From positions 1 to 19,648 of the forward strand of contig JAYPQH010000019.1 of assembly GCA_038131935.1 (NCBI GenBank): 19,648 nucleotides of DNA, written 5' to 3'. The stretch comes from Alphaproteobacteria bacterium. GTDB taxonomy: Bacteria > Pseudomonadota > Alphaproteobacteria > UBA8317. A program made the position numbers and the translations under genes. Positions 441 to 19,636 of this stretch are shown here, piece after piece. A model generated the notes under the pieces. It saw only the letters and a list, made by a program, of their open reading frames with translations. It did no database searches and was not told the origin of the DNA. Each line of letters opens with the position of its first letter. Position 1 is the stretch's first letter.

Positions 441-525
441 TGCTAGCGCTTTTGCATGTCCCAACGTTGGGGTGCTATGGGTAACTCGAATTTAAAAATG
501 CAGATGATGGTAAGTCGCTCGGTGA

Positions 526-554
526 TCGACAAAAGTACGTTTTGGCCTACGCAT
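526..554 (+). promoter_or_regulatory. Candidate yefM-yoeB promoter/autorepression operator
   Basis: TCGACA (526-531, -35-like) is followed by AAAAGTACGTTTT (531-543), with GTAC at 535-538 and a degenerate CTAC at 547-550, 12 bp apart. This resembles the paired TGTACA-core repeats of the E. coli yefM-yoeB operator. The -10 box is poor. Confidence 0.35.
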
Positions 555-573
555 TTTCAAAAGGGTAATTGTC

Positions 574-1075: not shown

Positions 1076-1081
1076 AAACAC

Positions 1082-1332: not shown

Positions 1333-1365
1333 CTCAATGAGTCCATTATCTCATACCACCTGATG

Positions 1366-1803: not shown

Positions 1804-1843
1804 ATTGATGAAGCTGATATTTGTGATCACATAAAGTTAAATC

Positions 1844-2674: not shown

Positions 2675-2827
2675 AACTTTCCTCCAAACATAACATGTGC
2701 AAAAGTTTAATGTCGCTAGAAAGAAGACAGCAAGAGCAAAATGCGCATAGCTAAAATGCATCTTCACCTGTTGCCAAACAACATCTTTTACGATGACATA
2801 TGGTATCTGTAAAAAAGGACTTTTAAA

Positions 2828-3553: not shown

Positions 3554-3563
3554 GACACATCAA

Positions 3564-4490
3564 TTGGCCTTTCGTCCTACTGGAAATTTTCTTGGTATTA
3601 TCCTTATTTCCATTGCTGTGCTTGGAAGCCTCACCACATCTATCGTCATTAAATTTTTCCCTCAGGATGTTGGTATAGCTACCCTCTTAGGGTTGAGATT
3701 TGTTGCAGCGATGCCGCCATTAATCTTGCTTGCCTGGTGGATAAGAGGCTGGGATGCTCTTCGTATTGAGCGAACCGATCGAATGATCTTTCGTATGCTT
3801 ATTGGACATACAGCTATTTTATTTTGGTTTCTGTCCGTGCGCCACTTAAGCTTAGGTCAGGCAACTGCATTATCACAGTCCTCCGCTATCTTCGTGACAG
3901 CTTTGGCACCTTTTGTCTTGGGGGAAAACGTAGGGGCACGACGCTGGGCGGCGGTCATCGTTGGTCTTATTGGCGTTATTTTCATTACAAATCCCTTTTC
4001 AGAAGATCTTAACTGGGGAATTTTGTATGGTTTGGGCTCTGCAATCACAGGTGCTTGGTTAGCTATTATCTTACGTATCCTAGGCAAGACAGAACAACCC
4101 ATCACTGTTGCTTTATGGCATAATGGAGCGGGAGCTATAGGATATCCATTAGGCTTGGCATTGATCGTAGGAACACCAACATCCATCACAGATCTTATTC
4201 AAGCACCTCATGGATGGGTTGCAACGGTTGTCATTGGACTTGCGGCAGCCATAATGCAATTTGGTTTCACTTCAGCATATCGACATGGGGAAGCAGCCGT
4301 CATCGTACCCATCCGTTATCTCGCAGTTCCACTCGCAACACTCGTGGGCTGGCTTGGATGGGGTGAGCGTCCATCAGTAGCTGAATACATAGGTATGAGC
4401 TTGGTGATTGGATCTTGCTTATTTATCGCGATGCGCGAATACAAAATACAATCAACAAACCAAACCAAAACCACAAATACGCAATCTTGA
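3564..4490 (+). CDS. DMT/EamA-family transporter
   Basis: About 10 hydrophobic segments in two EamA repeats (LGENVGARRWAAVIVGLIGV; GWLGWGERPS). TTG start after AGGA. Confidence 0.88.
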   Translation: MAFRPTGNFLGIILISIAVLGSLTTSIVIKFFPQDVGIATLLGLRFVAAMPPLILLAWWIRGWDALRIERTDRMIFRMLIGHTAILFWFLSVRHLSLGQATALSQSSAIFVTALAPFVLGENVGARRWAAVIVGLIGVIFITNPFSEDLNWGILYGLGSAITGAWLAIILRILGKTEQPITVALWHNGAGAIGYPLGLALIVGTPTSITDLIQAPHGWVATVVIGLAAAIMQFGFTSAYRHGEAAVIVPIRYLAVPLATLVGWLGWGERPSVAEYIGMSLVIGSCLFIAMREYKIQSTNQTKTTNTQS

Positions 4491-4549
4491 TACAATGCCT
4501 ACCCACGTAATGAAATATATGGCGGCCTAAATAGTCACCTGCGATAAGT

Positions 4550-5419
4550 TCAACCTGTTTGCATCGGACGATCTGTTTTCCCAGCCCATTCGCTCAGAGA
4601 ATTGTCATAAAGTTTCCACGTCTTTTGTCCCAATTGCTCTGCCCAAAAAACAGTGGCACTCGCAGCAATCCCTCCACCACAATAAGCAACCAAGCAGCCT
4701 TCATCAGGAAGATGACAGGAAGAAAAGTGCTCAGCAATAATACCCTCATCAAGAAAATGAGCTCCATCATCAGCGAGTAAACTTTTGGTGGGTATATTGA
4801 GCGAACCTGAAATGCGGCCCGGTCTACCATAATGCGTTCCACCACCTTGATGCTGCTCACGTGACAACGCATTCACCACAAGGTCTCCCTGATCCAAGGC
4901 ATGCTGAACATCTTCCGCCGTGGCAATATACTGCTCTTGGGGTATGCCCTCAAAGTGTTGCGGCGCATACTGAAATCTACCCTGCTCCAAGGGCAGTCCC
5001 TGGCCTACCCAGCCTAATAACCCGCCGTTCAATATACTTACCCTGTTAAAGCCTACTGTTTTTAACAACCACCAAACCCGCGTGGCCCATTGTGGGGAAT
5101 GAGTGGTGTAGAGAACAACATGTGAATCTTGAGAAATGCCCAATTGCCCAAATGACAACTGAAGAGCCTTAAACCCAGGATGCGTGTAACGTAAGGGACT
5201 TGCCGCATCACTTAAATCTCGCTGAATATCGATATAGGCGGCTTGAGGGATATGACCGTTTAACCAATCCTTTTCGCCAGAACCGTGTACATAGGTCTTG
5301 ATGGGATCCGGTATCAATTTTGCGCTACAGTCAAACAGACGCAAACCAGGTTGAGACAACATTTGATTGAGTTGGGCCGCATTGATCACGGCTGGAACGG
5401 TCGTGTCGTCAAATGACAT
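4550..5419 (-). CDS. Two-domain rhodanese / SseA-like sulfurtransferase
   Basis: GHIPQA, ATRVWWLLK..G...VSILNGG, GRISGSLNIP, active-site loop YCGGGIAA and C-terminal LYDNSLSEW. ATG at 5419 follows GAGGTG. Confidence 0.9.
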   Translation of the reverse strand: MSFDDTTVPAVINAAQLNQMLSQPGLRLFDCSAKLIPDPIKTYVHGSGEKDWLNGHIPQAAYIDIQRDLSDAASPLRYTHPGFKALQLSFGQLGISQDSHVVLYTTHSPQWATRVWWLLKTVGFNRVSILNGGLLGWVGQGLPLEQGRFQYAPQHFEGIPQEQYIATAEDVQHALDQGDLVVNALSREQHQGGGTHYGRPGRISGSLNIPTKSLLADDGAHFLDEGIIAEHFSSCHLPDEGCLVAYCGGGIAASATVFWAEQLGQKTWKLYDNSLSEWAGKTDRPMQTG

Positions 5420-5540
5420 ATTCACCTCATCTATCTATTAACATTTGTCTACGGTCTTGTTTGCATACGGTTTCTTGTTTAGCGTCCTTGCTGCTCTTCA
5501 AAAAACGAAACCTTCCAAACCATCTTCAAGGACTATGCGC

Positions 5541-6885
5541 ATGCCAACCCCGTTGTTCAATAGCACTATTTTTGGAAATATGTTTACCACCCCCGCGATG
5601 CAAAAGGTATTCTGTGACGAAAACCTTCTAAAACCTACATTGAGGTCAAATTGCCCTTGCCAAAGTCCAAGCAGACTTGGGGATTATTCCTCATGATGCC
5701 TATCAAACAATTGCAAACCATGCGTCCATAGATCTCATAGATAGAGAAGAATTACAGCGTCGCACAGAAATTGTTGGTTACCCTATTTTGCCGTTGGTTG
5801 AACAACTCAGCGCAAAGTTACCAAACGGACAAGGTCAGTTTCTCCATTATGGTGCCACCACGCAAGATATCATGGACACCGCCTTTATCCTCCAGATGCG
5901 TGAAGGTTTAAACATCCTCTCAAGGGAACTAACGAAGTTGCGTCAACATCTTGTTGATCTTGCCAAAGATCATGCCACAACGGCTATGCCAGGACGTACG
6001 CATTTACAGCATGCATTACCCATCTCCTTTGGTCATAAAGTTGCAGGTTGGCTAAGTGGGCTCGACCGTCATGCGGAACGTTTACAACAACTTAGACCAA
6101 GGTTAGAAGCTGTATCCTTTTTTGGAGCGGCAGGAACCTTAGCCTCTCTTCATGGCCGAGGTATCCAGGTACAAGAAGCTTTGGCATTAAATGGAACTGC
6201 ATGTACCAGATACAAGCTGGCACGATCCGCGATAATATTGCCGAAGCAAGTGGATGGCTTGCCAATGGTAACCGGCAGCATCGGGAAAATGGGTTATGAC
6301 ATTATGTTCATGATGCAGACAGAAATCGATGAGGTGCGAGAACCATTCCTCCCAGGACGCGGTGCGAGTTCGACAATGCCACAAAAACGCAATCCAATAT
6401 CCAGTGAAATTATGCTTGCCAATGCCGCCCTGGTTCGCGCTGAACATGTTACAACTTTAACAGCTATGATTAATGATCACGAGCGCGCAACCGGTCCATG
6501 GCATATGGAGTGGCATGCCATCCCTACTGCCTTCTTATGCACTGCTGGGAGTTTGGAAAGTGCAAATTTTGCCATCGCCGGACTTGAAGTTGATACAAAA
6601 AATATGATGCGCAACCTAAATTCCACTTCGGGATTGATCGTCGCTGAAGCTGTTATGATGGCCCTCGCACCTCATATTGGACGGCAATATGCCCATGATC
6701 TTGTCTATGATTGTTGCCGATCAGCTATTTCAAATCAAACAAGCCTTTATGATCAACTCAGCAAACATGACGAAGTGACCAAAGTGCTAAGCGACGAAGA
6801 ACTGCGCGCATGCACCAACCCACAGAATTATTTGGGTGAGGTCGACGTGATGATCAGCAAGGTTTTAAAAGCACATCATATTTAA
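5541..6885 (+). CDS. Class II fumarase/aspartase superfamily lyase (PcaB/3-carboxy-cis,cis-muconate cycloisomerase- or adenylosuccinate lyase-like); apparent frameshifts at about 5632, 5648 and 6190-6265
   Basis: Motifs HYGATTQDIMDT, MPGRTHLQHALP, GAAGT, signature GASSTMPQKRNP and HER..GPWH.EW. The N-terminus MPTPLFNSTIFGNMFTTPAMQKVFCDE starts at ATG 5541 (AAGGA upstream) in another frame and joins via (T)YIEV(E)IALAKVQADLGIIP. Confidence 0.85.
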
Positions 6886-7682
6886 GAAGATGAAGGATAC
6901 CACTGAGGGTCACGCTTTTCGATAAAACTCGCTATACCCTCGGCTGCTTCCCAACTTTGCCGTTTACGCGCATGAATATCAGCAAGAGCCCGGACATCAG
7001 AGGATGACAAATTTAATCCACAAGCATCCATAATGACCGATTTTGTATCAGCTAGAGCTTCGGGGGCACTTTTTAAAAAGCCATCAATCACCTTAGCTGC
7101 AGTCGTTTCCATATCTTCTAAGGCGCACACCTCATGCACCAAGCCTAGTTCTTGCGCGCGCTTGGCATCAAACTTTTCACAACTCATGGCATAGCGCCGA
7201 ACATGGCGACTTCCCATGGCTTCATTAAGATGTGGTATAATGGGAGCGGCCATCAATCCCCAACGTGTCTCTGAAATTGCAAAAATGGCATTGTCCGCTG
7301 CAATAACGACATCACAAGCTGCCAAGATTCCTGTTCCACCCCCTATGCAGGCTCCTTGCACGAGAGCCATTGTGGGCTTGGAAAGATTATTCAAAAAATC
7401 TACCGCTTGCCCAAGCTTGTATGAAACATCAAAATTTTCTTGTGCAGTACCCTGTGATGTTTGTTTAAGCCAATTTAAGTCTGCACCCGCTTGAAAATGC
7501 TTGCCCTCACCGCGAAACAACAATAGCCGAACATCCTCATCGGCTGCAGCCTCAATCACTGCAGATGCAAGACCATCAACAACTGCACCATTGTATGCAT
7601 TATTTTTCTCAGGTCTATTTATCGTTATTGTTGCAACACCACGTGCATCTTTTTCCCAAAAAACATCCTTGTTGGTCATCAC
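6882..7682 (-). CDS. Enoyl-CoA hydratase/isomerase, methylglutaconyl-CoA hydratase (LiuC/AtuE)-like
   Basis: TITINRPEKNNA, FQAGADL, GACIGGGTGI (first catalytic Glu replaced by Gly) and FAISE (second Glu kept), EAAEGIASFIEKR.P.W. GGAGG RBS; start at 7682 (GTG) or 7679 (ATG). Confidence 0.88.
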   Translation of the reverse strand: MMTNKDVFWEKDARGVATITINRPEKNNAYNGAVVDGLASAVIEAAADEDVRLLLFRGEGKHFQAGADLNWLKQTSQGTAQENFDVSYKLGQAVDFLNNLSKPTMALVQGACIGGGTGILAACDVVIAADNAIFAISETRWGLMAAPIIPHLNEAMGSRHVRRYAMSCEKFDAKRAQELGLVHEVCALEDMETTAAKVIDGFLKSAPEALADTKSVIMDACGLNLSSSDVRALADIHARKRQSWEAAEGIASFIEKRDPQWYPSSS

Positions 7683-7690
7683 ATAACCTC

Positions 7691-9213
7691 CTAATTTTCA
7701 ACAGTGAGTGATGGGTATCTCCCATCAATTAACTGATAACGCTCTAATATTCTGTCACGCAGTTGACGACGACTGATTTTGCCTTGTGGATTTCGTGGCA
7801 AAGAAGGCATCGCCACAAACAATCTAGGCTGGTTATGCTTTGATAAGCCTGTCAATTGTAGGCGTACCCGATCCTCCCAACCCATTTGCGGGTTTTCTGC
7901 CACAGCCGTGATAACCTCGCCCCAATAATCAGAGGGCAATGAGCAGATAACAACAGCTTGAGCATAAGCAGATGGATCAAGATTTGCTTCGACTTCATCA
8001 GGGTGCACACGATATCCCCCTGTTTTTATGACATCAGCAAGCCTGCCAGTAAGCCATAACCGACCTTGTTCATCCCATGCCCCAAGATCACCCGTAGCAT
8101 GCCAACCATCTGGTTCATGTTGCAGCAATTGCCCTGCTACAACATAGCCATCAGACATATGTTGTGCACGCAACCAAACTTCATTTTCATCACCTTCGGC
8201 ATGCTGAACAGGTGGACCAATGGAAACTTCCACCCCAGTGGCGGGCCAACCAACGCATGAGCCCTCATAGCCTGCAGCGAATGCTTTCTCTAACTGGTTT
8301 GCAGTAAGAACCGTAATGGGATTGATGCACTCTGTTTTTCCATAAGTAACCCTAGTAATAGGACCAAACACAGATTTTACCCGTGCATAAAGGCTCGGAG
8401 ACAAAGGCTGTGTGCCCGTCATGATGGCTTTCAGCCCTGCCCAATTTTGACCTTTATGTACGCTCAAAATTTTGGCCAATACGGTAGGCGGTGCAAACAT
8501 CACTGTAAGACCTTGTGCTGACAATAGTGCTTCTACATTCTCAAGGTGCACCCCATCATGGATAATAACTTCACCACCCCCATCTAACCACGCCTGGGTC
8601 ACAATACTTGCACCATGAACAAAGGGCGTCATAACCAGTAATTTTTCGCCTGGTTTTGGATGATGAGGTAAGGTCGCCTTTTGCAATGTCTCCCCCACAA
8701 AGCGTTTTGCATGGGAGTATACCAAACATTTAGGCTGCGATGTTGTGCCTGAGGTGAAGGCAAACGCCCCCATATGTCTCCCGGCACTGCTGGCAATTGC
8801 TCTTCCAACTCAGTGGGCATGATCGTGTCACAATCTACAACATCAAGACCGAGATCCCGGCAGCGTTCTGCCCATTTGCCAACACTGATCACATACTTCA
8901 GACCAGAGCTCTTAACTGACCACATAACCTCTTCGTCTGTGTATACCGATGACATCGCTACCTCTGCCATGCCCGATATTTTGCAGCCATACATTCCCCA
9001 AATGGCCTGCAAACCATTTGGTAGAAATGTACCAACAGGAGTTCCAAAAACCAGGCCCATTGACCGAAGGCGTTCGGCCAACCCATGTGCGAAGGCCGAT
9101 AACTCACGAAAAGTAAGAGAATTACCTTCTCGATCACGAATAGCATCCCGGTCCTCGTACTGTTCAGCAAGAACCCTAAGAGCGTTTGACCAAGGTATAT
9201 TGGGGGCAGACAT
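7691..9213 (-). CDS. AMP-binding acyl-CoA synthetase (ANL superfamily), apparent 1-nt frameshift near 8760
   Basis: The N-terminal ORF (LTFREL..., GDIWGR) joins the ORF carrying FTSGTTSQPK, YGKTE, TGDLG, GRLADVIKTGG and PRNPQGKI. ATG at 9213 overlaps the upstream TGA (TGATG). Confidence 0.87.
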
Positions 9214-10557
9214 CAATATACCTTAAGGTCATTGAGACTGTTCTGCTGCTCCATGGAGGTGAGTAAATGTAAAAGCTGATCACGTCCTTCAACACCTTCG
9301 GTACAATCCCTAAATTTGGCATCAAGATCAGCCTTGCTTAATGGAAGTAAAGCATTGCCTCTAGCAAAACGAATATCACCACTGTCGAGTACCCGACCAT
9401 TTGACAATGTGATTTTCACCCGGTCATGTTCTGAAAAAACCGGTTCGATTGGACATGAACCTTGCCGTTTTGTGATTTCAATACGTTTCATTACAGATTG
9501 AACTTCCTTGGTATTTACAAAATCATCAACCAACTCACCTAAGCCGTTTACGGCGCACCACTGCAGATGCCACAGCAAATTCTAATGAAAATTTTGCTTC
9601 CAAACCTGTTTTTGGTTCATGATTGCGAAGCATGGAAGCCTGAGCTTCACCTATCTCCGCCTCAACATGTACAATATCGCTTGGCTGTAAATCTTCTTTA
9701 TTCACGAGATCTAAAACCCCATCTGCCACACGATGAACGGCATAGCATGCAGGGTACTTTTTGATAGAGAGACCATTTTCTCCAATCCGCAATCTACCAT
9801 GACCAATATGACTTGAATCAGAAATATCGACCCTACCCAAAGAGGAAAGTGCCGCTAAGAATCCTGCATGATGCTCTAATGCATCATCAGAAGCAGTCAT
9901 GCCTGCCAATGCAAGATCTACAGCACGAATACCATTGGCAGCAGCTTCACCAGCGTGAAATGGCTTTGTCATGGTGCCAAAATTTGCAACCAGTGCTGAT
10001 GCTAAACTTGCTGCGATTGCTAAGGCTGTTTTCGCCTGGACAGGCTGCAACTTCCGCAGGAATGCGGCACAAGCAGCCGCTCCAATGGTTCCTAAAACTG
10101 CGGTGGGATGCCAACCTTTCAAATGATAAGGGTCTTTTTCACGGACAAAAAGGTCTGCCCAAACTTCATAACCTACAAGATATGCATCGAGAACTTGCTG
10201 GCCGCTTGCCCCCACCTCTTCTCCCAAAGCCAATGCTGTTGGCACCAATACCGTCGATGGATGTCCCCCCAAAGCGACATCATCAAAATCAAGTGCATGC
10301 CCCGCAGTCGCGTTTATTCTTGCAGCATCAACCGCTGAGGCCTTTTGCTCTCCCAAAAGGATGGATGAAAGACCTTTACTTGCTGCACGATCATGTTGTG
10401 CCAGAAGTATCTTAACAACTGGCTCGTTTCGGCCCGCAATCATCGTAGCAATGGTATCGATAAAACCACTTTTAACGATATCCAACTCTTTTGTGGAACG
10501 CGCAGACCACTGTGGTTGCGCAATGAATTGTCCATATTGTTTTGTGAGATCCACCAT
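9213..10557 (-). CDS. MmgE/PrpD-family protein (epimerase/isomerase/decarboxylase-like branch), apparent frameshift near 9547
   Basis: NATAGHALDFDD..GHPS, GWHPT, NFGTMTKPFHAG, KKYPACYAVH and P.TGLEAKFS motifs. The C-terminus GLGELVDDFV...ARGNALLPLS..L.AKFRDC is in a shifted frame. Confidence 0.88.
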
Positions 10558-10583
10558 ATTGTTACCTTCTTTAGAACAAAGGG

Positions 10584-11792
10584 TTAATAAGACCTGGGCA
10601 TGCCTAAAATATGTTCAGCTATATAGGAAAGAACGAGATTTGTTGAAATTGGGGCAATCTGCATCAACCTTGTTTCTCGCCACTTTCTCTCTACGTCATA
10701 TTCCCGCGCCATCCCAAAGCCACCATGGGTCTGCATGCAAGCCTCTGCAGCATGCCATGCCGCTTCACTAGCGAGCAGTTTCGCCATATTGGTTTCTGGA
10801 CCACAAGGCTGTCCATGCGCAAATAAACAGGCTGCTTTTCGTAAAAGCATATAGGCAGCCTCGGTTTCGGCATGAGCCCTAGCAATAGGAAATGATATCG
10901 CCTGATTTTGCCCAATAGGACGATCAAACACCACCCTTTCTTTAGCATAGTTAACGGCTGTTTTAACAAACCACCTTGCATCCCCAATCGACTCAGAAGA
11001 GACAAGAATACGCTCTGCGTTCAAGCCATCAATAATATACCGAAAACCCTTACCCTCTTCTCCAATAATATTCTCAGCAGGAACTTTTAGATTGTCAAAG
11101 AACACCTCTGTAGCATGGTGATTCACCATTGCTTTGAGTGGTTTGATGGTCATTCCTTTTTCTAAACTCTCGCGGATATCCACCAGAAAGACAGAGAGTC
11201 CCTCTGTTTTTTTTGCCACTTGATCTAAAGGTGTTGTGCGCGCCAAAAGCAACATTAGGTCGGAATGCAAAGCCCGTGACGTCCAAACTTTTTGACCATT
11301 TATGATATAGTGATCTCCCTGTCTGACAGCTCTGGTTTTGAGTTTGGTTGTATCGGTACCGCTGGTTGGTTCTGTAACACCAAAAGCCTGCAGCCTAAGA
11401 TTCCCTGAGGCAATCTGAGGCAGAAATCTCTCTTTTTGCTCATTTGACCCATGACGCAACAACGTACCCATAATATACATTTGCGCATGACAAGCTCCAG
11501 CGTTACAGCCACTTGCATGAATTTCCTCAAGAATCGCTGCCGCAGCATCAAGCGGCAGACCAGATCCACCATATTCTTCGGGTATCAATGCCGCCAAAAA
11601 TCCTGCTTCCGTTAGCGCCTGCACAAAAGCAGTAGGATATGCTTCATTCGCTTCCAAGTCTTGCCAATATGTTCCAGGAAAATTTTCGCAAATACGTCGC
11701 ACAGCGGCACGAATTTCTGGGAATGTTTCCCCTAGAGATAAAGAGAGGCCTTCCTGTACGTCCCATTCTTTTTTGCTCTGTGTCTGTGACAT
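10584..11792 (-). CDS. Acyl-CoA dehydrogenase family protein
   Basis: IPEEYGGSG, GVTEPTSGTD, INGQKVWTS, GLNAERI (IVD/LCAD-position catalytic Glu), QTHGGFG and RETRLMQIAPISTN. Intact 402 aa. Confidence 0.95.
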   Translation of the reverse strand: MSQTQSKKEWDVQEGLSLSLGETFPEIRAAVRRICENFPGTYWQDLEANEAYPTAFVQALTEAGFLAALIPEEYGGSGLPLDAAAAILEEIHASGCNAGACHAQMYIMGTLLRHGSNEQKERFLPQIASGNLRLQAFGVTEPTSGTDTTKLKTRAVRQGDHYIINGQKVWTSRALHSDLMLLLARTTPLDQVAKKTEGLSVFLVDIRESLEKGMTIKPLKAMVNHHATEVFFDNLKVPAENIIGEEGKGFRYIIDGLNAERILVSSESIGDARWFVKTAVNYAKERVVFDRPIGQNQAISFPIARAHAETEAAYMLLRKAACLFAHGQPCGPETNMAKLLASEAAWHAAEACMQTHGGFGMAREYDVERKWRETRLMQIAPISTNLVLSYIAEHILGMPRSY

Positions 11793-11804
11793 ATTCTGCC
11801 TCTT

Positions 11805-12746
11805 TCAACGTCTTTCAGCTGGAACATAATGAGCCGGGAAGCCCGCCCTGGCGAACGCACCATGCATAGAGATGTCAGGCAAAGATTTTTGAACCAACTC
11901 TCTAACCGCTACCAATTTTTCTAAATCGACACCCGTACGAAGCCCCATTGAATCCAGCATGAAACAAAGATCATCCATAACAATATTGCCCGTTGCACCT
12001 GGCGCAAATGGACAACCACCAATACCAGCAAGTGAGGCATCAAAATATTTTACGCCGCAATCTAAAGCTGCCAACACATTGGCAAGCCCAGTCCCTCTGG
12101 TATCGTGAAAATGAGCTGTCACAGGAAGGTCACCCAACTCCGCTATCACCGCGGTAAATACCTCACGAACCAAAACAGGATCAGCATAGCCAACGGTGTC
12201 TGGAAGCGCGACTTCACATGCACCTAATTCAGCCATTTGCACAGCGTAATGCACCACATCCCGCACTGATACACGGCCTTCAAATGAACAACCTAGAGAT
12301 GTGGCAAGCCCTACGCCAACAAGTGGCCTTTGATTTTCTGGCAACTCACCAACCATCTGCATAATAGATTGAAAATCAGCAACTGACTCTTCACGCTCTC
12401 TACGCACATTTTTTAAATTATGTGTCTTACTTACCGACATCACAAAATTAATTTTATGCACACCCAGCGCGACACCTCTTTCTGCACCTTTTTTATTTGG
12501 CACCAGTGCTGCCACGCGCAGTCCTGGCACACGCAGTGCTGCCTGTGTAACTTCAGCTGCATCGACAAACTGTGGTATCAGTTTAGGGGGAACATAAGAG
12601 GTGACCTCAATATCCTTAACGCCAGCATCCGCCTCAGCTTCTATCCATGATATTTTATCTTCCGTTGCCATAAAAGTAGGGTGAATTTGCAGCCCATCAC
12701 GCAAACCTACTTCTCGAACAAACACATCTACCGTATTATTGGACAT
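11805..12746 (-). CDS. Hydroxymethylglutaryl-CoA lyase-like DRE-TIM metallolyase
   Basis: EVGLRDGLQ, LPDTVG, HFHDTRG and GGCPFAPGATGN motifs. ATG at 12746 follows AGAGGT. Confidence 0.92.
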   Translation of the reverse strand: MSNNTVDVFVREVGLRDGLQIHPTFMATEDKISWIEAEADAGVKDIEVTSYVPPKLIPQFVDAAEVTQAALRVPGLRVAALVPNKKGAERGVALGVHKINFVMSVSKTHNLKNVRREREESVADFQSIMQMVGELPENQRPLVGVGLATSLGCSFEGRVSVRDVVHYAVQMAELGACEVALPDTVGYADPVLVREVFTAVIAELGDLPVTAHFHDTRGTGLANVLAALDCGVKYFDASLAGIGGCPFAPGATGNIVMDDLCFMLDSMGLRTGVDLEKLVAVRELVQKSLPDISMHGAFARAGFPAHYVPAERR

Positions 12747-12790
12747 ATCCAGATACCTCTTCACATCTTGTTGAGATCAAACATAAACTT

Positions 12791-13588
12791 CTATTGGCCC
12801 TTGAATTTGGCTGGACGCTTTTCATTAAAGGCTGCCACACCCTCCAAACGATCTTCCGTATCAATCAAGTGGTTATAAGCCTCTATCTCAAAGCGAAATG
12901 CCGTACGCAGTTCCATTTGGCCACCAAACCGAACAGATTTTTTGACCTGCTTTACAGATAGTGGCGCGTTTTGGGCTATAATCTTGGCGGTTTCCATAGC
13001 TTCTTTGAGAACATTTGCTGCTGGAAGAACTCTATTGAGAACACCGAAACGTTCTGCATCTTGCGCCGTGATCGGTCGACCAGTCATCAATATTTCCTTC
13101 GCACGGCGCTCGCCAATAGCCCGTGGCAAATTCTGGGTACCACCTGCTCCAGGCATAATGCCCAGGGTAACTTCTGTGAGTGCAAAGCGAGCCATTTCCG
13201 AACCATATGCAAAATCACAACAGAGAACCATTTCGAAACCACCTGCGTAAGCATGACCATTCACAGCAGCAATCACAGGAAGAGGCAAATCCACCAAACT
13301 CCAGTAGCCGCGCTCAAAAAGCTCATGTTGCATCACCCATTGTTTTTTTGTCATTCCATTACGTTCTTTAAGATCCCCACCCGCACAGAATATTCGCTCA
13401 CCTGCACCGGTAAGCACAACCACACGAACAGGCCCAGCATCCTCGGTTAGCCTTGTCCAAAGATCGAACAGATCTCTTCCCATCTGTGTATTTAATGCAT
13501 TGGCAACTTCAGGCCTATTCAGCGTCACCAGTAGAATGTGATCTTCACATATTTCAGTACGAATGGTTTCGTATGCAGGTAAATTCAT
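12791..13588 (-). CDS. Enoyl-CoA hydratase (crotonase) with both catalytic glutamates
   Basis: VTLNRPEVANAL, FCAGGDLKE, AGGFE, FALTE..LGIMPGAGGTQ and EGVAAFNEKRP. ATG at 13588 follows GAGG. Confidence 0.92.
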   Translation of the reverse strand: MNLPAYETIRTEICEDHILLVTLNRPEVANALNTQMGRDLFDLWTRLTEDAGPVRVVVLTGAGERIFCAGGDLKERNGMTKKQWVMQHELFERGYWSLVDLPLPVIAAVNGHAYAGGFEMVLCCDFAYGSEMARFALTEVTLGIMPGAGGTQNLPRAIGERRAKEILMTGRPITAQDAERFGVLNRVLPAANVLKEAMETAKIIAQNAPLSVKQVKKSVRFGGQMELRTAFRFEIEAYNHLIDTEDRLEGVAAFNEKRPAKFKGQ

Positions 13589-13598
13589 CGCCAAAACC

Positions 13599-14735
13599 TC
13601 ATTTTTCTTGATCGGGAAACAGAACATGATTGTGCGCCCCAAGATGAGGAGGGACACCTTGTGGTGCTGGGCGCACACCATCAATTTTTATAGGCAAACC
13701 AAACATTGTCATATCAGTGCCAGGCACAGGCTGCATGATCCCCACCGCCTGGGTTTGAGGATGGTCCACCAATTGGGCCAATGTTTGCACCGGTGCGCAC
13801 GGTATGCCTGCCTCATCCATCAAGTCTATCCAGGTAGCATTTGATTTGGCCTTCATCACATTCTCAATCATTGGATAAAGTGTGGTTTGATGATTGACCC
13901 GATCGGGGTTTGATAAAAAACGTGGGTCACTAGCCCATTCTGGATGCCCCAAAACCTGAGTCAGTCGGCGAAAAAGCTCATCTCCCCCTGCCGCGACAAC
14001 CACTTCACCATCCAATGTTGGAAATGCACGATAAGGAACAATGCTCGCCACCCCGGAGCCTTGTTTCTCCATCAATTCACCACTTGCAAGGTATTGTGAC
14101 CCCAAAAGTGAAGACCAGTTGGTAGCCGTTTCAAAAAGCGCGACATCAACAACATGCCCACGCCCTGTGATTTGCCGATCCCATAAGGCCATAAAAATTC
14201 CTAATACGCCCCATAGTCCGGTTCCCATATCGACAATAGAAGCACCCACACGCACGGATGGACGCCCTGGCTCGCCAGTTGTCGCCATGATACCACCAAA
14301 TGCCTGCATAAGCGGGTCATAACCCGGGCGGTCTTTCAACGGACCAGTTGTGCCAAATGCTCCGACATTGCAGTAAATGAGAGCTGGGTTTGCAGCACAT
14401 AATGTCTTCGCATCCAATCCTAATTTTTCAACTTGTCCTGGCCTCATATTCTGTATCACGATATCCGCGTGCTGTGCGATGAATTCGCATAATTTTGCGC
14501 GCTGTTCTTCATCACGCATATCGCAGACAACTGATTGTTTACCCCGATTCAAGGTTTGAAAAAATGCTCCAGCTCCATTCCAAAAAGGAGGCCCCCAATG
14601 ACGAGCATCATCACCAGCACCTTTTTCATTCTTGACGACCTTGGCTCCAAAGTCCGCAAAAATTTGACCTGCGAATGGGGCTGCAACGGAATTTCCCAAT
14701 TCTACCACCACAAGGTCTGCAATATTTGCCAGCAT
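13599..14735 (-). CDS. CaiB/BaiF (class III) CoA-transferase
   Basis: VAAPFAGQIFADFGAKVVK.E...GDDAR, LNRGKQSV, GYDPLMQA.GG and catalytic Asp in SIVDMGTG. Confidence 0.93.
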   Translation of the reverse strand: MLANIADLVVVELGNSVAAPFAGQIFADFGAKVVKNEKGAGDDARHWGPPFWNGAGAFFQTLNRGKQSVVCDMRDEEQRAKLCEFIAQHADIVIQNMRPGQVEKLGLDAKTLCAANPALIYCNVGAFGTTGPLKDRPGYDPLMQAFGGIMATTGEPGRPSVRVGASIVDMGTGLWGVLGIFMALWDRQITGRGHVVDVALFETATNWSSLLGSQYLASGELMEKQGSGVASIVPYRAFPTLDGEVVVAAGGDELFRRLTQVLGHPEWASDPRFLSNPDRVNHQTTLYPMIENVMKAKSNATWIDLMDEAGIPCAPVQTLAQLVDHPQTQAVGIMQPVPGTDMTMFGLPIKIDGVRPAPQGVPPHLGAHNHVLFPDQEK

Positions 14736-14999
14736 GTTTCTTTTTCCCCTACCCTCTAACAGTTCATTTTGTTGTGATGAAGAGCAATGAATTGTTTTGT
14801 GTTTTGCACAATGCTATCGGTAGGTTATGCTACCAAAGCAGCATGCGCAATAAGGCACCTCATTCATCATCATCGGCAAAATTAACACTTGCAAAAGCAA
14901 TCTATTGTGCCGTTTACTTCCATTGTGTTTTTAAACACTCTTCTCTTTTTTCAACTCAATTCTCTAAAATATTTATATTTTTGAAGGGCCATTACTACC

Positions 15000-16188
15000 A
15001 TGCCAAGCCAAAATCTTTGGCAGACCATCATTGTTTTATTTTTCTTGATCGCGGTCCAAGCCACCTCAGCAATTTCAGGTTTTTGGTTACCTGCCATTGC
15101 ACCAAATGTTGCCCAGGACCTTGGCGTCGATGCGGCACTCGTTGGGGTTGCCGTCATGATTTTGTATTTTGCCGCAATGTTATCGAGTTTGGCTGTGGGT
15201 GGTTTTGTCCGCAGATTTGGAGCTTGGCGAACATCTCAAATCGCTCTTGCAGGATTTGCTTTGGCGCACATCATACAAATGCAAGGAAGCCTTTGGAGCA
15301 TCGCTTTAGGCGCCATCATTCAAGGCATTTCTTATGGTTTCGTTACCCCTCCAGCTTCACATTTGTTACAAAAAGTTGTCACCCCCAAAAACCGCAACCT
15401 TCTTTTCTCTATCCGCTTTACAGGTGTTCCTCTTGGCGGTGTTGTCACAGGATTGTTGGCACCCCCATTGACCCTTGAACTAGGGTGGCAATCTGCCATG
15501 TTGTTTGTGGTCTTCTTCTCTTGTTTTTTGATCATTGTGATGCAGCCATTAAGAAAGAGCTGGGATCATGATCGTGATCATTCCGCTGCGCTATTACGTG
15601 ATCCACGCAGCGATATGATTAAATCCTGGCAATCCAAGTCTCTTCGCTATGTGGTTTCTTTCAGTTTGCATGGGGCTGTTCAAACAACTTTAACACATTC
15701 ACCACAACAGCATTGGTAGCTGATGCCCATTTAAGGCTTGTTGTTGCAGGTTTAGATTGGCCTATCTTCAATTTGGGGTATTTGGTCGACTTTGGGGTTG
15801 ATGCAGACAAATGGGCCAGGGTATGGTGGTCGCAGCATTTGTTGCCGTCATAGCGGCCATCTCCAATATGTCCGCTATGCTGTTAAATGAAGGATTAGGC
15901 ACGACCATCATTTTCGTAGGTTGTTTTATCCTAGGGCTTACAGGATTAGGATGGAATGGTGTATATGCCAGTGAAATCGCAAGGCGTGCGCCCAAAGATC
16001 AAGTAAGTCAGATCACTGGGGCTAGCATGTTCTTTACATTTTCCGGTGTGTTCTGGGGACCATCCATTTACCTTTTTGCCCATGCCCTCTTAGGCAGTTA
16101 TGCCCTAGCATTTTTAGCATCGGTTATCATGGCAGGTTTGGCAGCGTTATGTTGTTACATGGCACAACGGAATGTTCCAAATCCCTAA
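15000..16188 (+). CDS. MFS transporter, apparent frameshifts between about 15650 and 15810
   Basis: Hydrophobic N-domain with a motif A-like GGFVRRFGAWR and R......SIRFTGVPLGG. The C-domain fragment (15811-16188) has GWNGVYASEIARRAP and is in a different frame. Confidence 0.82.
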
Positions 16189-16934
16189 ACTTGCGTAACA
16201 ACACCGCCATTCACTTGTAGCATTTGGCCGCTCATGAAACCACCATCATCTGAACATAAATAGCTCACAAGACCAGCAATATCTCGACTTTTTCCTAGCC
16301 TACCTGACGGGTTACCTAGCCGCAATTGCTCAAACGAACCGCCAGAATCAATAACAACATCATCTCCAGGAAATGTTCCAGGCGATATCATATTGCAGGT
16401 AACACCATCCCGACCATGCTCTACACATAAGGATTTCGTAAGCCCCCACAAAGCATGCTTTGATACGGAGACAGCTGTTTTCCCGACATAACCTTTTTGT
16501 GCATTCATCCCCGTGAAATGTATAATCTGACCCCAATTTGCTTGTATTCATATCGGGTAACAAACCACGCGCCAGCCAAACTGCTGAATGAAAATTCACG
16601 TCCATAACCTTATCCCAAACAGCCATATCTTCATCCAAGAAAGGTGCTGAAGGTCTAATTGCCGCATTATTGATAAGGACATGAACAGGTCCAAAGTGCT
16701 TATGTGTACTGTCAATCAATCGATCGATATCGCTGCGTTGTCCGATATCAGCCATACAAAAATGAGCAGACCCACCGTTTGCTTCAATCTCAGACACAAC
16801 AGATTGACACGCGGCCTCATCTTTTGAACCATTAACCACAACGTTAAAGCCATCCTCTGTAAGACGCATAGCGATCCCCCCTTTACCGATGCGCGCACCA
16901 GATCCTACGTCATTGTGGCGGTTTTTTTGAGCAT
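16185..16934 (-). CDS. SDR-family (FabG-like) oxidoreductase, atypical active site; apparent frameshifts near 16905 and 16540
   Basis: ATG 16934 after GAAAGGAAG gives MLKKTA. Then GSGARIGKG, ADI, VLINNAAIRP and VMDVN follow, and after a shift WGQIIHFTGMNAQKGYVGKTAVSVSKHALWGLTKSL, NMISPG and FMSGQMLQVNGG. Confidence 0.82.
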
Positions 16935-17109
16935 TTACTCTTCCTTTCTTCAACCATATGCAAAACGAACATAGTATTGTTGCATGCTTAAGTGCTTGTG
17001 ATGGACGAGGTAAACATTTAGCATTCTGAATACAAACCAGAATAAATGTGTTCTTGGTCCACAAAAATGAGCGAAACATGGCCAAAGATTTCGATCAAGA
17101 GGGGAAAAT

Positions 17110-18321
17110 ATGGCAGAAAGCATTGGTGTTGACGGGGCATGGGACCCAAATCTCAAAGGAAGCTTGCACGGCGTTCGTGTTTTGGACATGTCTCGTCTGG
17201 TGGCAGGAAACGCGTTAACCCATGTTTTGGCTGACCATGGTGCGGAAGTTATCAAAGTTGAACGTCCAGGACGTGGCGATGATTTGCGAAATTGAAAACG
17301 AAGGACATGCCACACACTGGAAAGTTTTACCGCCAAAACAAGCGCAGTGTGACATTAGATTATCGCGCAGAGGGTGAACGAATTGTTTCTAAATTAGTGA
17401 AAACAGCTCATGCCCTTGTAGAAAATTTCAAGCCAGGAACCTTGGAAAAAATGGGGCTGGGAACTGATGTTCTTCATAAGATCAATCCTAAACTCGTCAT
17501 CGTCAGAATCTCAGGTTGGGGACAAGATGGTATGTGGAGCCACAAACCCGGCTTTGGCTCATTGGTAGAAGCCATGGGAGGCTATGCGTCTGTAAGCGGA
17601 TTTTCTGATCGTCCTCCTTTGCTCCCCCCCACAGCCTTGGCTGACATGATTGCAGGGTTGTACGGCTCCATGGCTGTGATGGCCGCGATTAGGCATGTCG
17701 AGGTTGAAGGGGGTAATGGCCAAATTATTGATTTGCCGCTGTTGGATGCCATTCATTCTGTACTTGGCCCTCTTGCCGCTAATTATGCGCTAACAGGTCA
17801 AGAGCCCGAGCGTATTGGATCATTATCTGATCAAACAGCCTCGAAATGTGTATCAGTGCCGTGACGGCAAACATGTTGCACTCAGCGCATCTATGCAAGC
17901 CATGGCAGAACGACTTTTTCGCGCCATGGGTCAGCCAGAGCTCATTGATGACCCCCGCTTTCGGACCAATTCAGATCGCGTAGCTCATAAGGAAGAGCTC
18001 GATGCTATTGTTGCAAACTTTATGGCAAGCCATGACCAAAAAGACTTGTTAGACCTTTTTGAGCGCGAAGATGTTACCGTAGGCCCAGTTGTTGGGATCG
18101 CAGAATTTGTACAACATCCTTATGTGCATGATCGGCGCGTGGTTTTGAATATGCCTGATGAGGATGCGGGACAAATACCCATGCATCATGTTGTTGCTAG
18201 GATGTCCGATACTCCAGGTGGCATGATAAGACAGGCACCAGCCCTTGGCCAAGACAATGACCAAATATGGCGTAGTATTGGTGAAGACCCAGATTATTTA
18301 CGATCAAAAGGAGTAATATGA
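17110..18321 (+). CDS. CaiB/BaiF (class III) CoA-transferase, apparent frameshifts at about 17293-17330 and 17838
   Basis: Three consecutive ORF pieces: LHGVRVLDMSRLVAG...LADHGAEVIKVERPGRGDDLR; NKRSVTLD...ENFKPGT...ALADMIAG (catalytic Asp); PRNVYQCRDG...APALGQDN. Confidence 0.88.
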
Positions 18322-19190
18322 TGCTCACCGATGCTTTACGTTCATTGTTATACATCCCAGTACTGGGCGAAAAATTTATTGCACGCGCCTCAGAGCGTGG
18401 TGCAGATGGCATTATTTTGGATTTGGAAGATGCTATTGCACCACATATGAAAGAGGAGGCAAGAGAAGCACTACCGCAGGCCATTCAAGCATTACGCCAA
18501 CAGAATATTCAACAAATTCTGGTACGTATTAACCGCCCATTGGGACTTGCTATCCCAGACATTAAAGCTGCGATCGATGCAGGTGCAGATGCTCTGTGTT
18601 TGCCCAAAATTGACCATCCAGAACAAATACATCTGATTGATGAATATGTTGATGAGTGTCAACAAGGCTCTGATCATCAAGATGTCCATTATTTGGTTCT
18701 TATTGAAACGGCGCGTGGGATACAAAATGTTGCTGACATCGCACAAGCAAGCCCACGTATAAAAGCGATTACAATGGGCAATGAAGACCTAGCTGCAGAT
18801 CTTGGCCTACCTGATTCAGATCCCGAATTGATGGCTTCCTATGATGCCCTGGTGCGTTTGGTAGCAAGAGCAGCAGGTGTGATCTCCATGGGTTACAATT
18901 GCTCTATCGCGGAATTCATTGATCTGACAAATTTGAGAAAGCGTGAGGGCAAAGTGCATGGGGCATTTGGGAGGCATGTGTATTCACCCAAAACAAGTTC
19001 CTTGCCTGAACAGAGCTTTTCAACCAGACCCAGAGGATGTCGTTGAAGCCGAAGCTCTTTTAGATGCATTCAATACAGCTTTGGCACAAGGTTTAGGGGC
19101 TGTCGCATACAAAGGTAAAATGATTGATAAGCTATTGTAGAAAGGGCTGAACGTTTGGTAGCACGCGCAAAACTCATTGGAACCTTGTAA
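18318..19190 (+). CDS. HpcH/HpaI aldolase / citrate lyase beta (CitE)-family CoA-ester lyase, apparent frameshifts near 18940 and 19132
   Basis: RSLLYIP, ADGIILDLEDAI, LVRIN, LPK, LIETARG and GNEDLAADLG. Shifted frames supply MGHLGGMCIHPKQV...GKMIDK and (P)IVERAERLVARAKLIGTL, stop at 19188-19190. The start overlaps the upstream stop (ATGA). Confidence 0.88.
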
Positions 19191-19240
19191 ACCTCAGATG
19201 AGATGATTGGAACTTACGTAACCACAAATTAGGAAATGAC

Positions 19241-19636
19241 ATGTCGAAACAAACAAAACCCAATATGGATGAACTTCTCGAAAAGGGATTGGCCAAAAGA
19301 CGCGCAACGCTTGGAGACGCTTATGTTGACCGCGCAATGAGTGGCGAAGATGAATTGATGGCGGAATTCCAGCCTGCAATGACGGCTTGGGCTTGGGGAT
19401 TTGGCTGGGGAGATGAAACAATTGATGTCAAAACACGCTCCATGATGAATCTGGCCATGATAGCTGCATTGGGCAAAATGCACGAATGGGAACTACATTG
19501 CCGCGGCGCTTTGCGTAATGGTGTCACAAAGGATGAAATCAAAGCCATTATTCACGTCGTTAATCTATTGTGGTGTCCTCAATCATTAGAATGTTTCCGT
19601 GTGCCAAAAAGGTTTTTAGCAAATAATGTAAATTGA
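19241..19636 (+). CDS. Carboxymuconolactone decarboxylase (PcaC/CMD)-family protein
   Basis: GLAKRRATLGDAYVDRA, FQ..MT..AWG..W, KTRSMMNLAMIAALG..HE..LH.RGALRNGVTKDEI. The conserved IYCGVP is readable only in an alternative frame at about 19563-19579. Confidence 0.87.
   Translation: MSKQTKPNMDELLEKGLAKRRATLGDAYVDRAMSGEDELMAEFQPAMTAWAWGFGWGDETIDVKTRSMMNLAMIAALGKMHEWELHCRGALRNGVTKDEIKAIIHVVNLLWCPQSLECFRVPKRFLANNVN

Follow-up and report, generated by a model that had tools for sequence, protein, structure and literature searches.

What does a run of acyl-CoA enzymes degrade when it pairs relatives of a known itaconate cluster with a hydratase and a lyase of other folds? The window, by which we mean the whole 19,648-nt stretch of alphaproteobacterial DNA analyzed here, carries on its minus strand seven genes that Pfam assigns to a family III CoA-transferase (CaiB1), a crotonase (ECH_B), an HMG-CoA-lyase-like enzyme (HMGL), an acyl-CoA dehydrogenase (ACAD), an MmgE/PrpD protein, an AMP-forming ligase and a second crotonase (ECH_A), with 8–26 nt between neighboring genes or the genes abutting (Table 1), just as the original prediction had described this tight, co-oriented run. 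The second unit named there, a CoA-transferase followed by a CitE-like lyase, has the predicted Pfam families and lies on the plus strand, which had been left unsaid; both lyase folds are indeed present, the HMGL-like one in the operon and the HpcH/CitE-like one in the plus-strand unit. The gene content given for the locus was right, but the MFS transporter and the SDR, which sit between the two units, and frameshifts in seven genes had been overlooked. Our tentative reading, to which we give slightly less than even weight, is that the locus may be a variant methylsuccinate/mesaconate route via (R)-citramalyl-CoA, an island for a branched C5 dicarboxylate, likeliest methylsuccinate, mesaconate or itaconate.

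Table 1. Genes of the locus, with their positions in the window.
Gene product	Position	Strand	Pfam match	Reading frame	Placement
CaiB1, family III CoA-transferase	13599..14735	-	CoA_transf_3, E 1e-111	intact	operon gene 1
ECH_B, crotonase	12791..13588	-	ECH_1, E 7e-72	intact	
HMG-CoA-lyase-family lyase	11805..12764	-	HMGL-like, E 3e-43	intact	
ACAD	10584..11792	-	three ACAD domains	intact	
MmgE/PrpD	9213..10557	-	MmgE_PrpD_N/C	two frames	
AMP-forming acyl-CoA ligase	7691..9216	-	AMP-binding on both pieces	two frames	
ECH_A, second crotonase, LiuC/AtuE-like	6882..7682	-	ECH_1, E 3e-44	intact	final operon gene
MFS transporter	15000..16188	+	MFS_1, E 8e-21 on first piece	split	divergent from operon
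SDR, short-chain dehydrogenase	16185..about 16935	-	adh_short on both pieces	split	
CaiB2, second family III CoA-transferase	17110..18321	+	CoA_transf_3	three frames	
CitE/HpcH-type lyase	18318..19140	+	HpcH_HpaI, E 6e-34	two frames	
Adenylosuccinate-lyase/PcaB-family lyase	5677..6885	+	Lyase_1		convergent with operon
Carboxymuconolactone-decarboxylase-family (CMD) protein	19241..19636	+	CMD, E 4e-15		flanks locus

The operon is widely conserved among bacteria, with carriers in culture such as Pollutimonas bauzanensis and Bordetella hinzii. Eighty genome loci were found with HMGL, most of the named ones in Burkholderiales, and orthologues of ECH_B, CaiB1, ACAD and PrpD occur at 73, 62, 61 and 55 of them. 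A check of synteny, suggested with the original prediction, found the core order CaiB–crotonase–HMGL–ACAD–PrpD colinear in 32 of the 57 genome loci with room for five genes; among metagenome loci found with CaiB1, 44 had room, 21 of them with ECH–HMGL–ACAD–PrpD and 19 with ECH–ACAD–PrpD. The gene arrangement is thus not due to chance, because dozens of other genomes show this order too, and the cluster can do without an HMGL-type lyase, which those 19 loci lack. The outer genes recur less often: orthologues of the AMP-ligase (46–53% identity) are found at 14 of the 80 genome loci, a homologue of the CMD protein at four, an orthologue of ECH_A at one and a CitE-like gene at one. The crotonase comes directly after the CoA-transferase in most related loci, and no Ich-like (MaoC) or Ccl-like (CitE) gene lies within 10 kb at any of 80 metagenome loci, which agrees with the proposal that a crotonase stands in place of MaoC. 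Among the genome loci searched, the only Ich-like match beyond the canonical cluster L103 (see below) is in the class-relative locus L013; the window holds no MaoC-type Ich homologue, and the sole one in the genome is on contig C22, at 37% identity.

The ACAD and MmgE/PrpD genes are neighbors, 26 nt apart, and the same two families lie directly side by side in the canonical itaconate–methylsuccinate cluster, a five-gene cluster of Pseudomonas aeruginosa and Cupriavidus necator (Ict, Ich, Ccl, Mcd, Msi; PA0878–PA0883; PMC12290011, PMC9875883 and PMC13491972) that likewise has a family III CoA-transferase. According to the available text of PMC12290011, which demonstrates the functions of the pair, Mcd is the methylsuccinyl-C4-CoA dehydrogenase and Msi the (S)-(R)-methylsuccinate isomerase, and the isomerase gene always adjoins the dehydrogenase gene. 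The original prediction had made no use of this 2025 assignment. All our canonical comparisons use one anchor cluster, L103 of Pollutimonas bauzanensis (gene order PrpD–ACAD–MaoC–CitE–CaiB), with its own proteins rather than the characterized PA0879/PA0881 as reference; its MaoC protein matches PDB 8khg, “itaconyl-CoA hydratase” (E 1e-52). The window ACAD is 66% identical to that of L103, a value that does not fix its substrate, and 70–84% identical to its syntenic orthologues, while PrpD is 44% identical to its L103 counterpart; with this canonical pair standing beside MaoC and CitE, the suggested likeness to the itaconate/methylsuccinate locus holds. For each of canonical Msi, Mcd, Ict and Ccl, the best match in the source genome falls in the window. 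In the tree of this ACAD family, all but one of the 57 HMGL-adjacent ACADs group in a single clade (SH-aLRT 91), the window ACAD among them; in that of PrpD, the canonical protein groups with all 52 from variant clusters (SH-aLRT 99), separate from five paralogues. By alignment, the window PrpD matches the carboxylate-binding and catalytic residues H85, D88, H99, H150, K198 and K266 of IDS epimerase, named in the available part of PMC12290011 as common to that enzyme and methylsuccinate isomerase. A tyrosine is proposed there as the second base of the isomerase; at the position aligned with IDS-epimerase Tyr145 (His-Tyr), the window PrpD has Tyr-His and the canonical-context PrpD His-His. We predict the ACAD to be methylsuccinyl-C4-CoA dehydrogenase-like and the MmgE/PrpD protein to be methylsuccinate-isomerase-like.

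Would the same architecture serve a different succinate substituted at C2, for example an acid derived from itaconate or the ethyl-, hydroxymethyl- or carboxymethyl- compound? PrpD would then epimerize C2, the ACAD desaturate, the crotonase hydrate, and the HMGL-type lyase release acetyl-CoA and a larger 2-oxo acid. Pollutimonas bauzanensis has both the canonical cluster and a variant one (L023) in the same genome, which argues against pure redundancy and hints at different substrates, and the variant ACADs are a clade of their own. The PcaB-like gene that abuts the operon points the same way, as the fumarate-lyase superfamily acts on substituted succinates; it misses every cut-off in the NCBIfam profile comparison, lacks about 45 N-terminal residues (the Lyase_1 match runs from profile position 98) and has internal indels. 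The isomerase pocket, too, could accept larger C3-modified substrates (PMC12290011, available part). We nevertheless regard such a substrate as unlikely: none of the genes indicates a candidate compound, the identity of the ACAD to the canonical-context enzyme is high, and the source genome (89.9% complete) is without a canonical cluster on search, so that the variant would be its only methylsuccinate-type route.

CaiB1, 55–65% identical to syntenic orthologues and 47% to the CoA-transferase of L103, is a predicted succinyl-CoA:methylsuccinate (or related dicarboxylate) CoA-transferase. The likely start of ECH_B is the ATG at 13588, 10 nt past the CaiB1 stop, and orthologue alignments begin at about 13600. 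The two catalytic glutamates of crotonases are Glu144 and Glu164 in the rat enzyme. Read by eye from the translations, ECH_B keeps both, 20 residues apart; in ECH_A, Gly replaces the first and the second is Glu. ECH_B is a predicted mesaconyl-C4-CoA hydratase. The CitE/HpcH-type lyase, 39% identical to Ccl of L103 and located outside the operon in the divergent second unit, is predicted to be (S)-citramalyl-CoA-lyase-like.

The HMGL is a clear family member, with 276.3 bits to the NCBIfam subfamily PRK05692 (cut-off 246), 148.7 bits to Pfam HMGL-like (cut-off 29) and E 4e-65 against PDB HMG-CoA lyases. We predict an (R)-citramalyl-CoA lyase-like retro-aldol enzyme; a score over the HMG-CoA-lyase subfamily cut-off would fit true HMG-CoA as substrate equally well, and it is an argument for a C6 route from 3-methylglutarate, 3-methylglutaconate or HMG, in which CaiB1 or the ligase would activate the acid, the ACAD form 3-methylglutaconyl-CoA, either crotonase hydrate it, and cleavage of genuine HMG-CoA give acetoacetate and acetyl-CoA. 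Several below-cut-off matches lean the same way: ECH_A, which NCBIfam places nearest to gamma-carboxygeranoyl-CoA hydratase (235 bits, cut-off 426); CaiB1, with 257 bits to succinate-glutarate CoA-transferase; and the ACAD, with 209 bits to non-decarboxylating glutaryl-CoA dehydrogenase. The AtuE/LiuC type is also among the closest NCBIfam and PDB relatives of ECH_A. This route is improbable, and its substrates are the least favored of those weighed here. As 3-methylglutarate lacks a stereocentre, it would leave the conserved PrpD idle; no named glutaryl-CoA enzyme comes nearly as close to the ACAD as the canonical Mcd-type one; conservation of the cluster does not extend to ECH_A; and the source genome already has a liu cluster. 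Known MmgE/PrpD substrates, moreover, have a succinate backbone in common, according to the available text of PMC12290011.

That liu cluster also bears on whether the window holds a housekeeping set. LiuABCDE and AtuABCDEF likewise use an ACAD, a crotonase (LiuC/AtuE resembles ECH_A) and an HMG-CoA lyase, but the locus is without biotin carboxylase or carboxyltransferase, and its conserved partners are CaiB and PrpD. No Carboxyl_trans match falls in the window; those in the genome are on contigs C17, C37, C18 and C1 only, and C37 carries a distinct liu run (ACAD–carboxyltransferase–crotonase–HMGL, 62.6–69.0 kb) whose HMGL and crotonase are 34–36% identical to those of the window (34% for the HMGL). 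We reject a housekeeping liu set, which the original prediction had named as counting against it, on these grounds. Four families are shared with the carnitine operon caiTABCDE (CaiB transferase, CaiA ACAD, CaiC ligase and CaiD crotonase), but the scores with the NCBIfam cai equivalogs lie far under the cut-offs, at 71 for CaiB (cut-off 413), 159 for the CaiA type (540) and 172 for the CaiD type (500), and neither HMGL nor PrpD belongs to carnitine metabolism.

Seven genes are split by frameshifts in this assembly's copy, which raises the alternative of a decaying remnant, its frameshifts real mutations and the pathway non-functional in the source organism. PrpD lies in frames 9535–10557 and 9213–9578, with a shift near 9545–9562 where orthologue HSPs switch frame, and the AMP-ligase in frames 8629–9216 and 7691–8773, with a shift near 8761–8779 located by the frame switch against orthologues of 504–570 aa. 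We compared the window with contigs of four public metagenome runs from four studies, with 12 of 46 indel sites listed. In the SDR, split near 16531–16556, one letter at 16547 is absent in all four runs and its removal gives one 247-aa frame; in CitE, adopting the single-letter change that run X1 shows at 18953 joins the pieces into a 284-aa frame. CaiB2 is in pieces at 17110–17295, 17292–17864 and 17815–18321 (CoA_transf_3 profile positions 1–41, 58–228 and 228–366), with one letter at 17325 absent in all four runs, and in the PcaB-like gene, where all four runs likewise carry indels, other runs have insertions behind 5628, 5647, 6189, 6191 and 6220; neither gene is rejoined by the 12 of 46 indels listed. 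Over the MFS gene (pieces 15000–15719 and 15811–16188), the other runs' contigs carry 14 gap letters in 13906–15962.

The number of split genes itself speaks for decay, as does the clustering of indels: gap letters number 0 in 1040–4465 and in pieces spanning 9896–13924, against those 14 in about 2 kb. Substitution density is greater in the broken genes (1.5–2.3% vs 0.6–0.9%), the genome retains 18 open frames of at least 1000 aa, one of 6333 aa, which indicates that error is not uniform, and several accessory genes on contig C29 are split as well, as genome-wide decay would give. A genus mate (84% complete) has no copy by DNA search, which would make the island dispensable. Against this, at the sites listed the four assemblies from four studies share a reading that differs from the window, and a mosaic of errors, typical of partly polished assemblies, would fit as well. 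For an organism that is abundant, free-living and encountered in 11 studies, inactivation of seven genes together at about 1% divergence would be unusual. The breaks appear private to this assembly, because the metagenome contigs differ by indels, two of which restore the SDR and CitE frames to full length. Assembly error is more likely than decay, which we hold to be rather unlikely, if less so than either alternative substrate.

For the methylsuccinate reading, we infer the substrate, the stereochemistry and every catalytic step from the gene families, their synteny and their homology to the canonical pair. The first module would be the ACAD and MmgE/PrpD, homologues of Mcd and Msi of the Pseudomonas/Cupriavidus itaconate cluster, and the second CaiB, crotonase and HMGL-family enzyme, doing the job of Ict–Ich–Ccl with unrelated hydratase and lyase folds. 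After import of the acid by the MFS protein, PrpD would racemize free methylsuccinate, CaiB1 (or the AMP-ligase) would form the C4-CoA ester, and the ACAD would convert it to mesaconyl-C4-CoA. ECH_B would then hydrate this to (R)- rather than (S)-citramalyl-CoA, expected because crotonases and MaoC hydratases add water in opposite facial senses, and the HMGL-family lyase would cleave it to acetyl-CoA and pyruvate. The precedent for this step, likened by description, is the (R)-citramalyl-CoA lyase of the 3-hydroxypropionate bi-cycle of Chloroflexus aurantiacus, reportedly described by Friedmann, Alber and Fuchs in 2007 as of the HMG-CoA-lyase family; unlike the lyase here, it serves an autotrophic cycle and has other partner enzymes. 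The divergent CaiB2–CitE pair may handle (S)-citramalate via (S)-citramalyl-CoA, and C. necator operon3 (ict3–ccl2; available part of PMC13491972) is likewise a CoA-transferase–CitE pair.

The canonical cluster follows the logic proposed here (activate, dehydrogenate, hydrate, cleave). In the variant, in contrast, a crotonase replaces the MaoC-type hydratase, the operon lyase belongs to the HMGL family and not to CitE, the gene set also includes an AMP-ligase and a second crotonase, and the predicted intermediate is (R)-, not (S)-citramalyl-CoA. The variant thus looks like the known logic of methylsuccinate/itaconate breakdown with two of its enzymes exchanged for unrelated ones.

The host genome (2.48 Mb in 67 contigs, 89.9% complete) carries the locus on contig C19, all of which is the window, and the listing of open reading frames together with Pfam scans bears out the minus-strand run named in the original prediction: a family III CoA-transferase (CaiB1), a crotonase (ECH_B), an HMG-CoA-lyase-family protein (HMGL), an acyl-CoA dehydrogenase (ACAD), an MmgE/PrpD protein (PrpD), an AMP-forming ligase and a second crotonase (ECH_A). 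The genes abut or are spaced by 8–26 nt.

Genes of the window and positions at which their reading frames switch.
Feature	Coordinates	Strand	Basis or position	Frame switch (orthologue alignment)
Fic/DOC-domain ORF	51–440		Upstream part of window (1–5425)	
4HBT thioesterase overlapping by context with TauD-family dioxygenase	1366–2767	−	Upstream part of window	
Adenylosuccinate-lyase/PcaB-family (fumarate-lyase-superfamily) gene	5677–6885		Flanks locus, convergent with operon	
ECH_A, second crotonase	6882–7682	−	ORF, Pfam	
AMP-forming ligase	7691–9216	−	ORF, Pfam	near 8761–8779
MmgE/PrpD protein	9213–10557	−	ORF, Pfam	near 9545–9562
ACAD, acyl-CoA dehydrogenase	10584–11792	−	ORF, Pfam	
HMG-CoA-lyase-family protein	11805–12764	−	ORF, Pfam	
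ECH_B, crotonase	12791–13588	−	ORF, Pfam	
CaiB1, family III CoA-transferase	13599–14735	−	ORF, Pfam	
MFS transporter	15000–16188	+	In region divergent from minus-strand run	
SDR, short-chain dehydrogenase	16185–about 16935	−		near 16531–16556
CaiB2, second CoA-transferase	17110–18321	+		near 17292–17322 and 17830–17852
CitE/HpcH-type lyase	18318–19140	+		near 18946–19031
Carboxymuconolactone-decarboxylase-family gene	19241–19636		Flanks locus	

None of the locus proteins reaches an NCBIfam equivalog cut-off, the HMG-CoA-lyase subfamily model being the only NCBIfam model passed among them. The translation of ECH_B has both crotonase glutamates, and that of ECH_A has a glycine at the first position, presumably as in bacterial methylglutaconyl-CoA hydratases. 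The upstream 1–5425 also holds genes for a solute-binding protein, an EamA transporter and a two-domain rhodanese. In C. necator, according to PMC12290011, an adenylosuccinate-lyase-family gene lies beside a second pair of itaconyl-CoA hydratase (Ich) and CoA-transferase; the PcaB-like gene may be one that repeatedly accompanies genes for C5 dicarboxylates.

The CaiB-crotonase-HMGL-ACAD-PrpD core is a real, conserved operon, as its order recurs in both genome and metagenome loci. With the HMGL protein as query, a search limited to a single genome for each species gave 80 loci (48–76% identity), the named ones mostly from Burkholderiales (Pollutimonas, Orrella, Bordetella hinzii and genomosp. 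12, Polaromonas, Limnohabitans, Ramlibacter, Jezberella, Sheuella), with a few from Alphaproteobacteria. Orthologue-level matches were found in these loci for ECH_B (73/80), CaiB1 (62/80), ACAD (61/80) and PrpD (55/80), and for the ligase (14/80), CaiB2 (3/80), CitE (1/80) and ECH_A (1/80). The five genes are colinear in 32 of the 57 loci with enough flanking sequence on both sides, 8 more have CaiB-ECH-HMGL-PrpD without the intervening ACAD, and the other 17 are incomplete or rearranged. A second, independent set, of 80 metagenome loci matched by CaiB1 (60–65% identity), included 44 with room for the neighbors: 21 with ECH-HMGL-ACAD-PrpD, 19 with ECH-ACAD-PrpD without HMGL, and four others; no homologue of a MaoC-type Ich or a CitE-type citramalyl-CoA lyase (Ccl) was found in any of the 80. 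The conserved synteny for which the original prediction had called thus exists, while ECH_A, the CaiB2-CitE pair, the SDR and the MFS gene belong to a variable accessory set. The frequent HMGL-less sub-variant (L107–L112, L115, L122–L127, L131, L133, L179 and others) is often accompanied by a second MmgE/PrpD gene, lying divergently upstream and only distantly related (26–29% identical to the canonical protein).

In the six loci examined from the 30 same-class relatives searched, ACAD orthologues (63–69% identical) are accompanied by a distant (~33%) CaiB in four of the six and by ECH_B in one; the whole cluster is in none of the six. In a plasmid collection all 109 HMGL matches were below 60% identity; plasmid 2 of Variovorax sp. 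RA8 (L185, 121837–128537) has a distant CaiB-crotonase-HMGL trio (50% identity) directly after hydantoinase/oxoprolinase A and B genes and before TctC-type binding proteins. That position beside the hydantoinase genes suggests that the trio may be a portable unit, which would activate, hydrate and cleave in other pathways.

To our knowledge, the only characterised route for itaconate and methylsuccinate is that of the MaoC hydratase and CitE lyase, encoded in a cluster of CoA-transferase (Ict), Ich, Ccl, ACAD (Mcd) and MmgE/PrpD isomerase (Msi). Gonner et al. 2025 studied the ACAD and the MmgE/PrpD protein encoded in the itaconate cluster of Pseudomonas/Cupriavidus, and the isomerase gene is described there as always adjoining the dehydrogenase gene, mostly in Betaproteobacteria (PMC12290011). 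As canonical anchor, defined by gene context, we took a second locus of Pollutimonas bauzanensis (L103) with the order PrpD-ACAD-MaoC-CitE-CaiB, whose MaoC protein matches PDB 8khg, “itaconyl-CoA hydratase,” at E 1e-52. The window proteins are 66% (ACAD), 44% (PrpD), 47% (CaiB1) and 39% (CitE) identical to those of L103 and are the best matches to the canonical set within the host genome, in which, at 89.9% completeness, the canonical cluster itself was not found. In the ACAD tree a single clade (SH-aLRT 91) gathers 56 of the 57 sequences that adjoin an HMGL and leaves out the enzyme from the canonical context as well as the class relatives; the nearest relative of the window ACAD is from a Quisquiliibacterium MAG (84% identity). 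The PrpD tree groups all 52 proteins of variant clusters with the canonical-context one in a single clade (SH-aLRT 99) with unresolved internal branching, and sets five paralogues apart. The window PrpD keeps the residues aligned to H85, D88, H99, H150, K198 and K266 of IDS epimerase; no position in the alignment could be assigned to the tyrosine proposed as second base. The host has four further MmgE/PrpD genes (frames of 411–551 aa on contigs C25, C1 and C35; L096, L097, L099, L100), and a total of five, beside 16 ACAD matches, is unusually rich for 2.5 Mb. The CaiB2-CitE pair resembles operon3 of C. necator (ict3-ccl2), which PMC13491972 describes as induced mainly by mesaconate. Our full-text literature searches turned up no paper on a cluster of the crotonase/HMGL type; in the main text of PMC12290011, whose supplements list differently organised clusters, the terms crotonase, enoyl-CoA hydratase and HMG-CoA do not occur.

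The original prediction would have fallen had these genes been the housekeeping leucine set. They are not, since a separate run of ACAD, carboxyltransferase, crotonase and HMGL on contig C37 (62.6–69.0 kb) is the housekeeping leucine-catabolism run, and the HMGL and crotonase encoded there share only 34% and 36% identity with their window counterparts.

Our proposal is that the operon would combine Mcd and Msi homologues with a trio standing in for Ict-Ich-Ccl. Crotonases add water to trans-2-enoyl-CoA with the facial sense opposite to that of MaoC hydratases. Because of this, and because the carboxylate outranks the CH2-CO-SCoA arm under the priority rules, a crotonase acting on mesaconyl-C4-CoA would give (R)-citramalyl-CoA, where MaoC would give the (S) form; by the same reasoning (S)-HMG-CoA would correspond in space to (R)-citramalyl-CoA. 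Chloroflexus has the only (R)-citramalyl-CoA lyase that we know of, and it belongs to the HMG-CoA-lyase family. The swap of hydratase fold would force a swap of lyase fold, which would account for the joint occurrence of both replacements. The CaiB2-CitE pair could serve (S)-citramalate. A C6 route through true HMG-CoA would agree with the HMGL subfamily score but would leave the conserved PrpD without a role, and we consider it improbable. Another 2-substituted succinate as substrate is somewhat less improbable, though still unlikely; Pollutimonas harbours both the canonical and the variant cluster, as such a substrate would lead one to expect. We favor, tentatively and with less than even confidence, a second, stereochemically mirrored bacterial route for branched C5 dicarboxylates, in which the matched crotonase and HMG-CoA-lyase-family pair would degrade methylsuccinate, mesaconate or itaconate by way of (R)-citramalyl-CoA and not, as MaoC and CitE do in the textbook route, by way of (S)-citramalyl-CoA, and which would be widespread in Burkholderiales and reach an abundant lineage of marine and saline-water plankton.

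Seven genes of the window are interrupted, a feature that had gone unnoticed in the original prediction. Alignment of full-length orthologues places frame switches in six of them; the PcaB-like gene lacks its N-terminus, and the ORF listing spreads the MFS gene over at least two frames. The stretch is present in at least 20 runs from 11 studies of salt-lake, marine, seawater and estuary metagenomes. We aligned contigs from four runs (X1–X4), from four studies, to the window; one of these contigs, 21 kb long, covers 1–19617 and differs from the window by 148 substitutions and 51 gap letters. Among the 12 of 46 indels listed, all four runs have insertions behind 5628, 5647 and 6220 and deletions at 16547, 16880, 16906 and 17325, those covering the site (all but X4) share insertions behind 6189 and 6191, and a letter at 18953 is missing from X1 only. 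With the shared differences applied, the SDR becomes one frame of 247 aa, and with that of X1, CitE becomes one of 284 aa; the first and second pieces of CaiB2 are not rejoined by these 12 of the 46, nor is the PcaB-like gene. A search for near-identical metagenome contigs with intact alleles, in a collection that may lack records close to the window, had a best match of 65% identity. Gap letters are absent from the aligned pieces 1040–4465, 6683–8548 and 9896–13924 and pile up over the MFS gene (14) and over 16024–19617 (26), where substitutions are denser too. No long homopolymers were found at the frame junctions, 17325 lying within four T and 16547 within TT.

Our conclusion is that the frame breaks are peculiar to this assembly; whether error or decay is the cause, at least the SDR and CitE genes do occur intact in nature. 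The host genome has 18 open frames of at least 1000 aa, one of 6333 aa, so error is not uniform genome-wide, and patchy assembly error is the probable cause. Strain-specific decay of the island is the less likely cause, but contig C29 (9000–17300, L015) does have several more genes seemingly split between adjacent frames. These encode a second Mcd-like ACAD (62–70% identical to that of the window), an ornithine-cyclodeaminase-family protein, an amine oxidoreductase and an SBP_bac_5 binding protein. The 6333-aa frame, uninterrupted from near 130.7 kb on contig C30 with frames of 1849 and 1998 aa close by, probably encodes a giant protein of the surface or adhesin type. Genome-wide frameshift gauges (ORF coverage and a junction heuristic) were too crude to yield a rate, the heuristic giving only three window sites, one of them false. 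ORF-free stretches of ~20 kb were rejected as a sign of assembly error, their coding score being like that of shuffled DNA and not of frameshifted genes. Two such contig-terminal stretches, C18 215000–234999 (L101) and C5 72000–91826 (L102), have no frame of at least 200 aa; nine of ten frames tested in L101 lack a Pfam match, the C5 stretch has a G+C of 37% against 45.5% for the genome, and both may be DNA of foreign origin, the product of a misjoin, or non-coding.

The island is accessory, since a DNA search of the genus mate G001 (84% complete) found only an ACAD paralogue. The ACAD tree suggests a Burkholderiales origin of the cluster. Island G+C (46.9%) matches the host genome (45.5%), with eight related loci checked ranging from 51% to 67%; a transfer, if from Burkholderiales, was therefore not recent.

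Itaconate and methylsuccinate metabolism is relevant to immunometabolism, soil carbon turnover and bioplastic upcycling. If the proposal is true, the Mcd/Msi pair would have been kept while hydratase and lyase were swapped for stereochemically matched unrelated folds, a clean case of coupled non-orthologous replacement, and pathway-design toolkits would gain an (R)-citramalyl-CoA module. It would also give a function to the very common trio of CaiB, crotonase and HMG-CoA lyase, at present only generically annotated, and would suggest that marine plankton use such acids.
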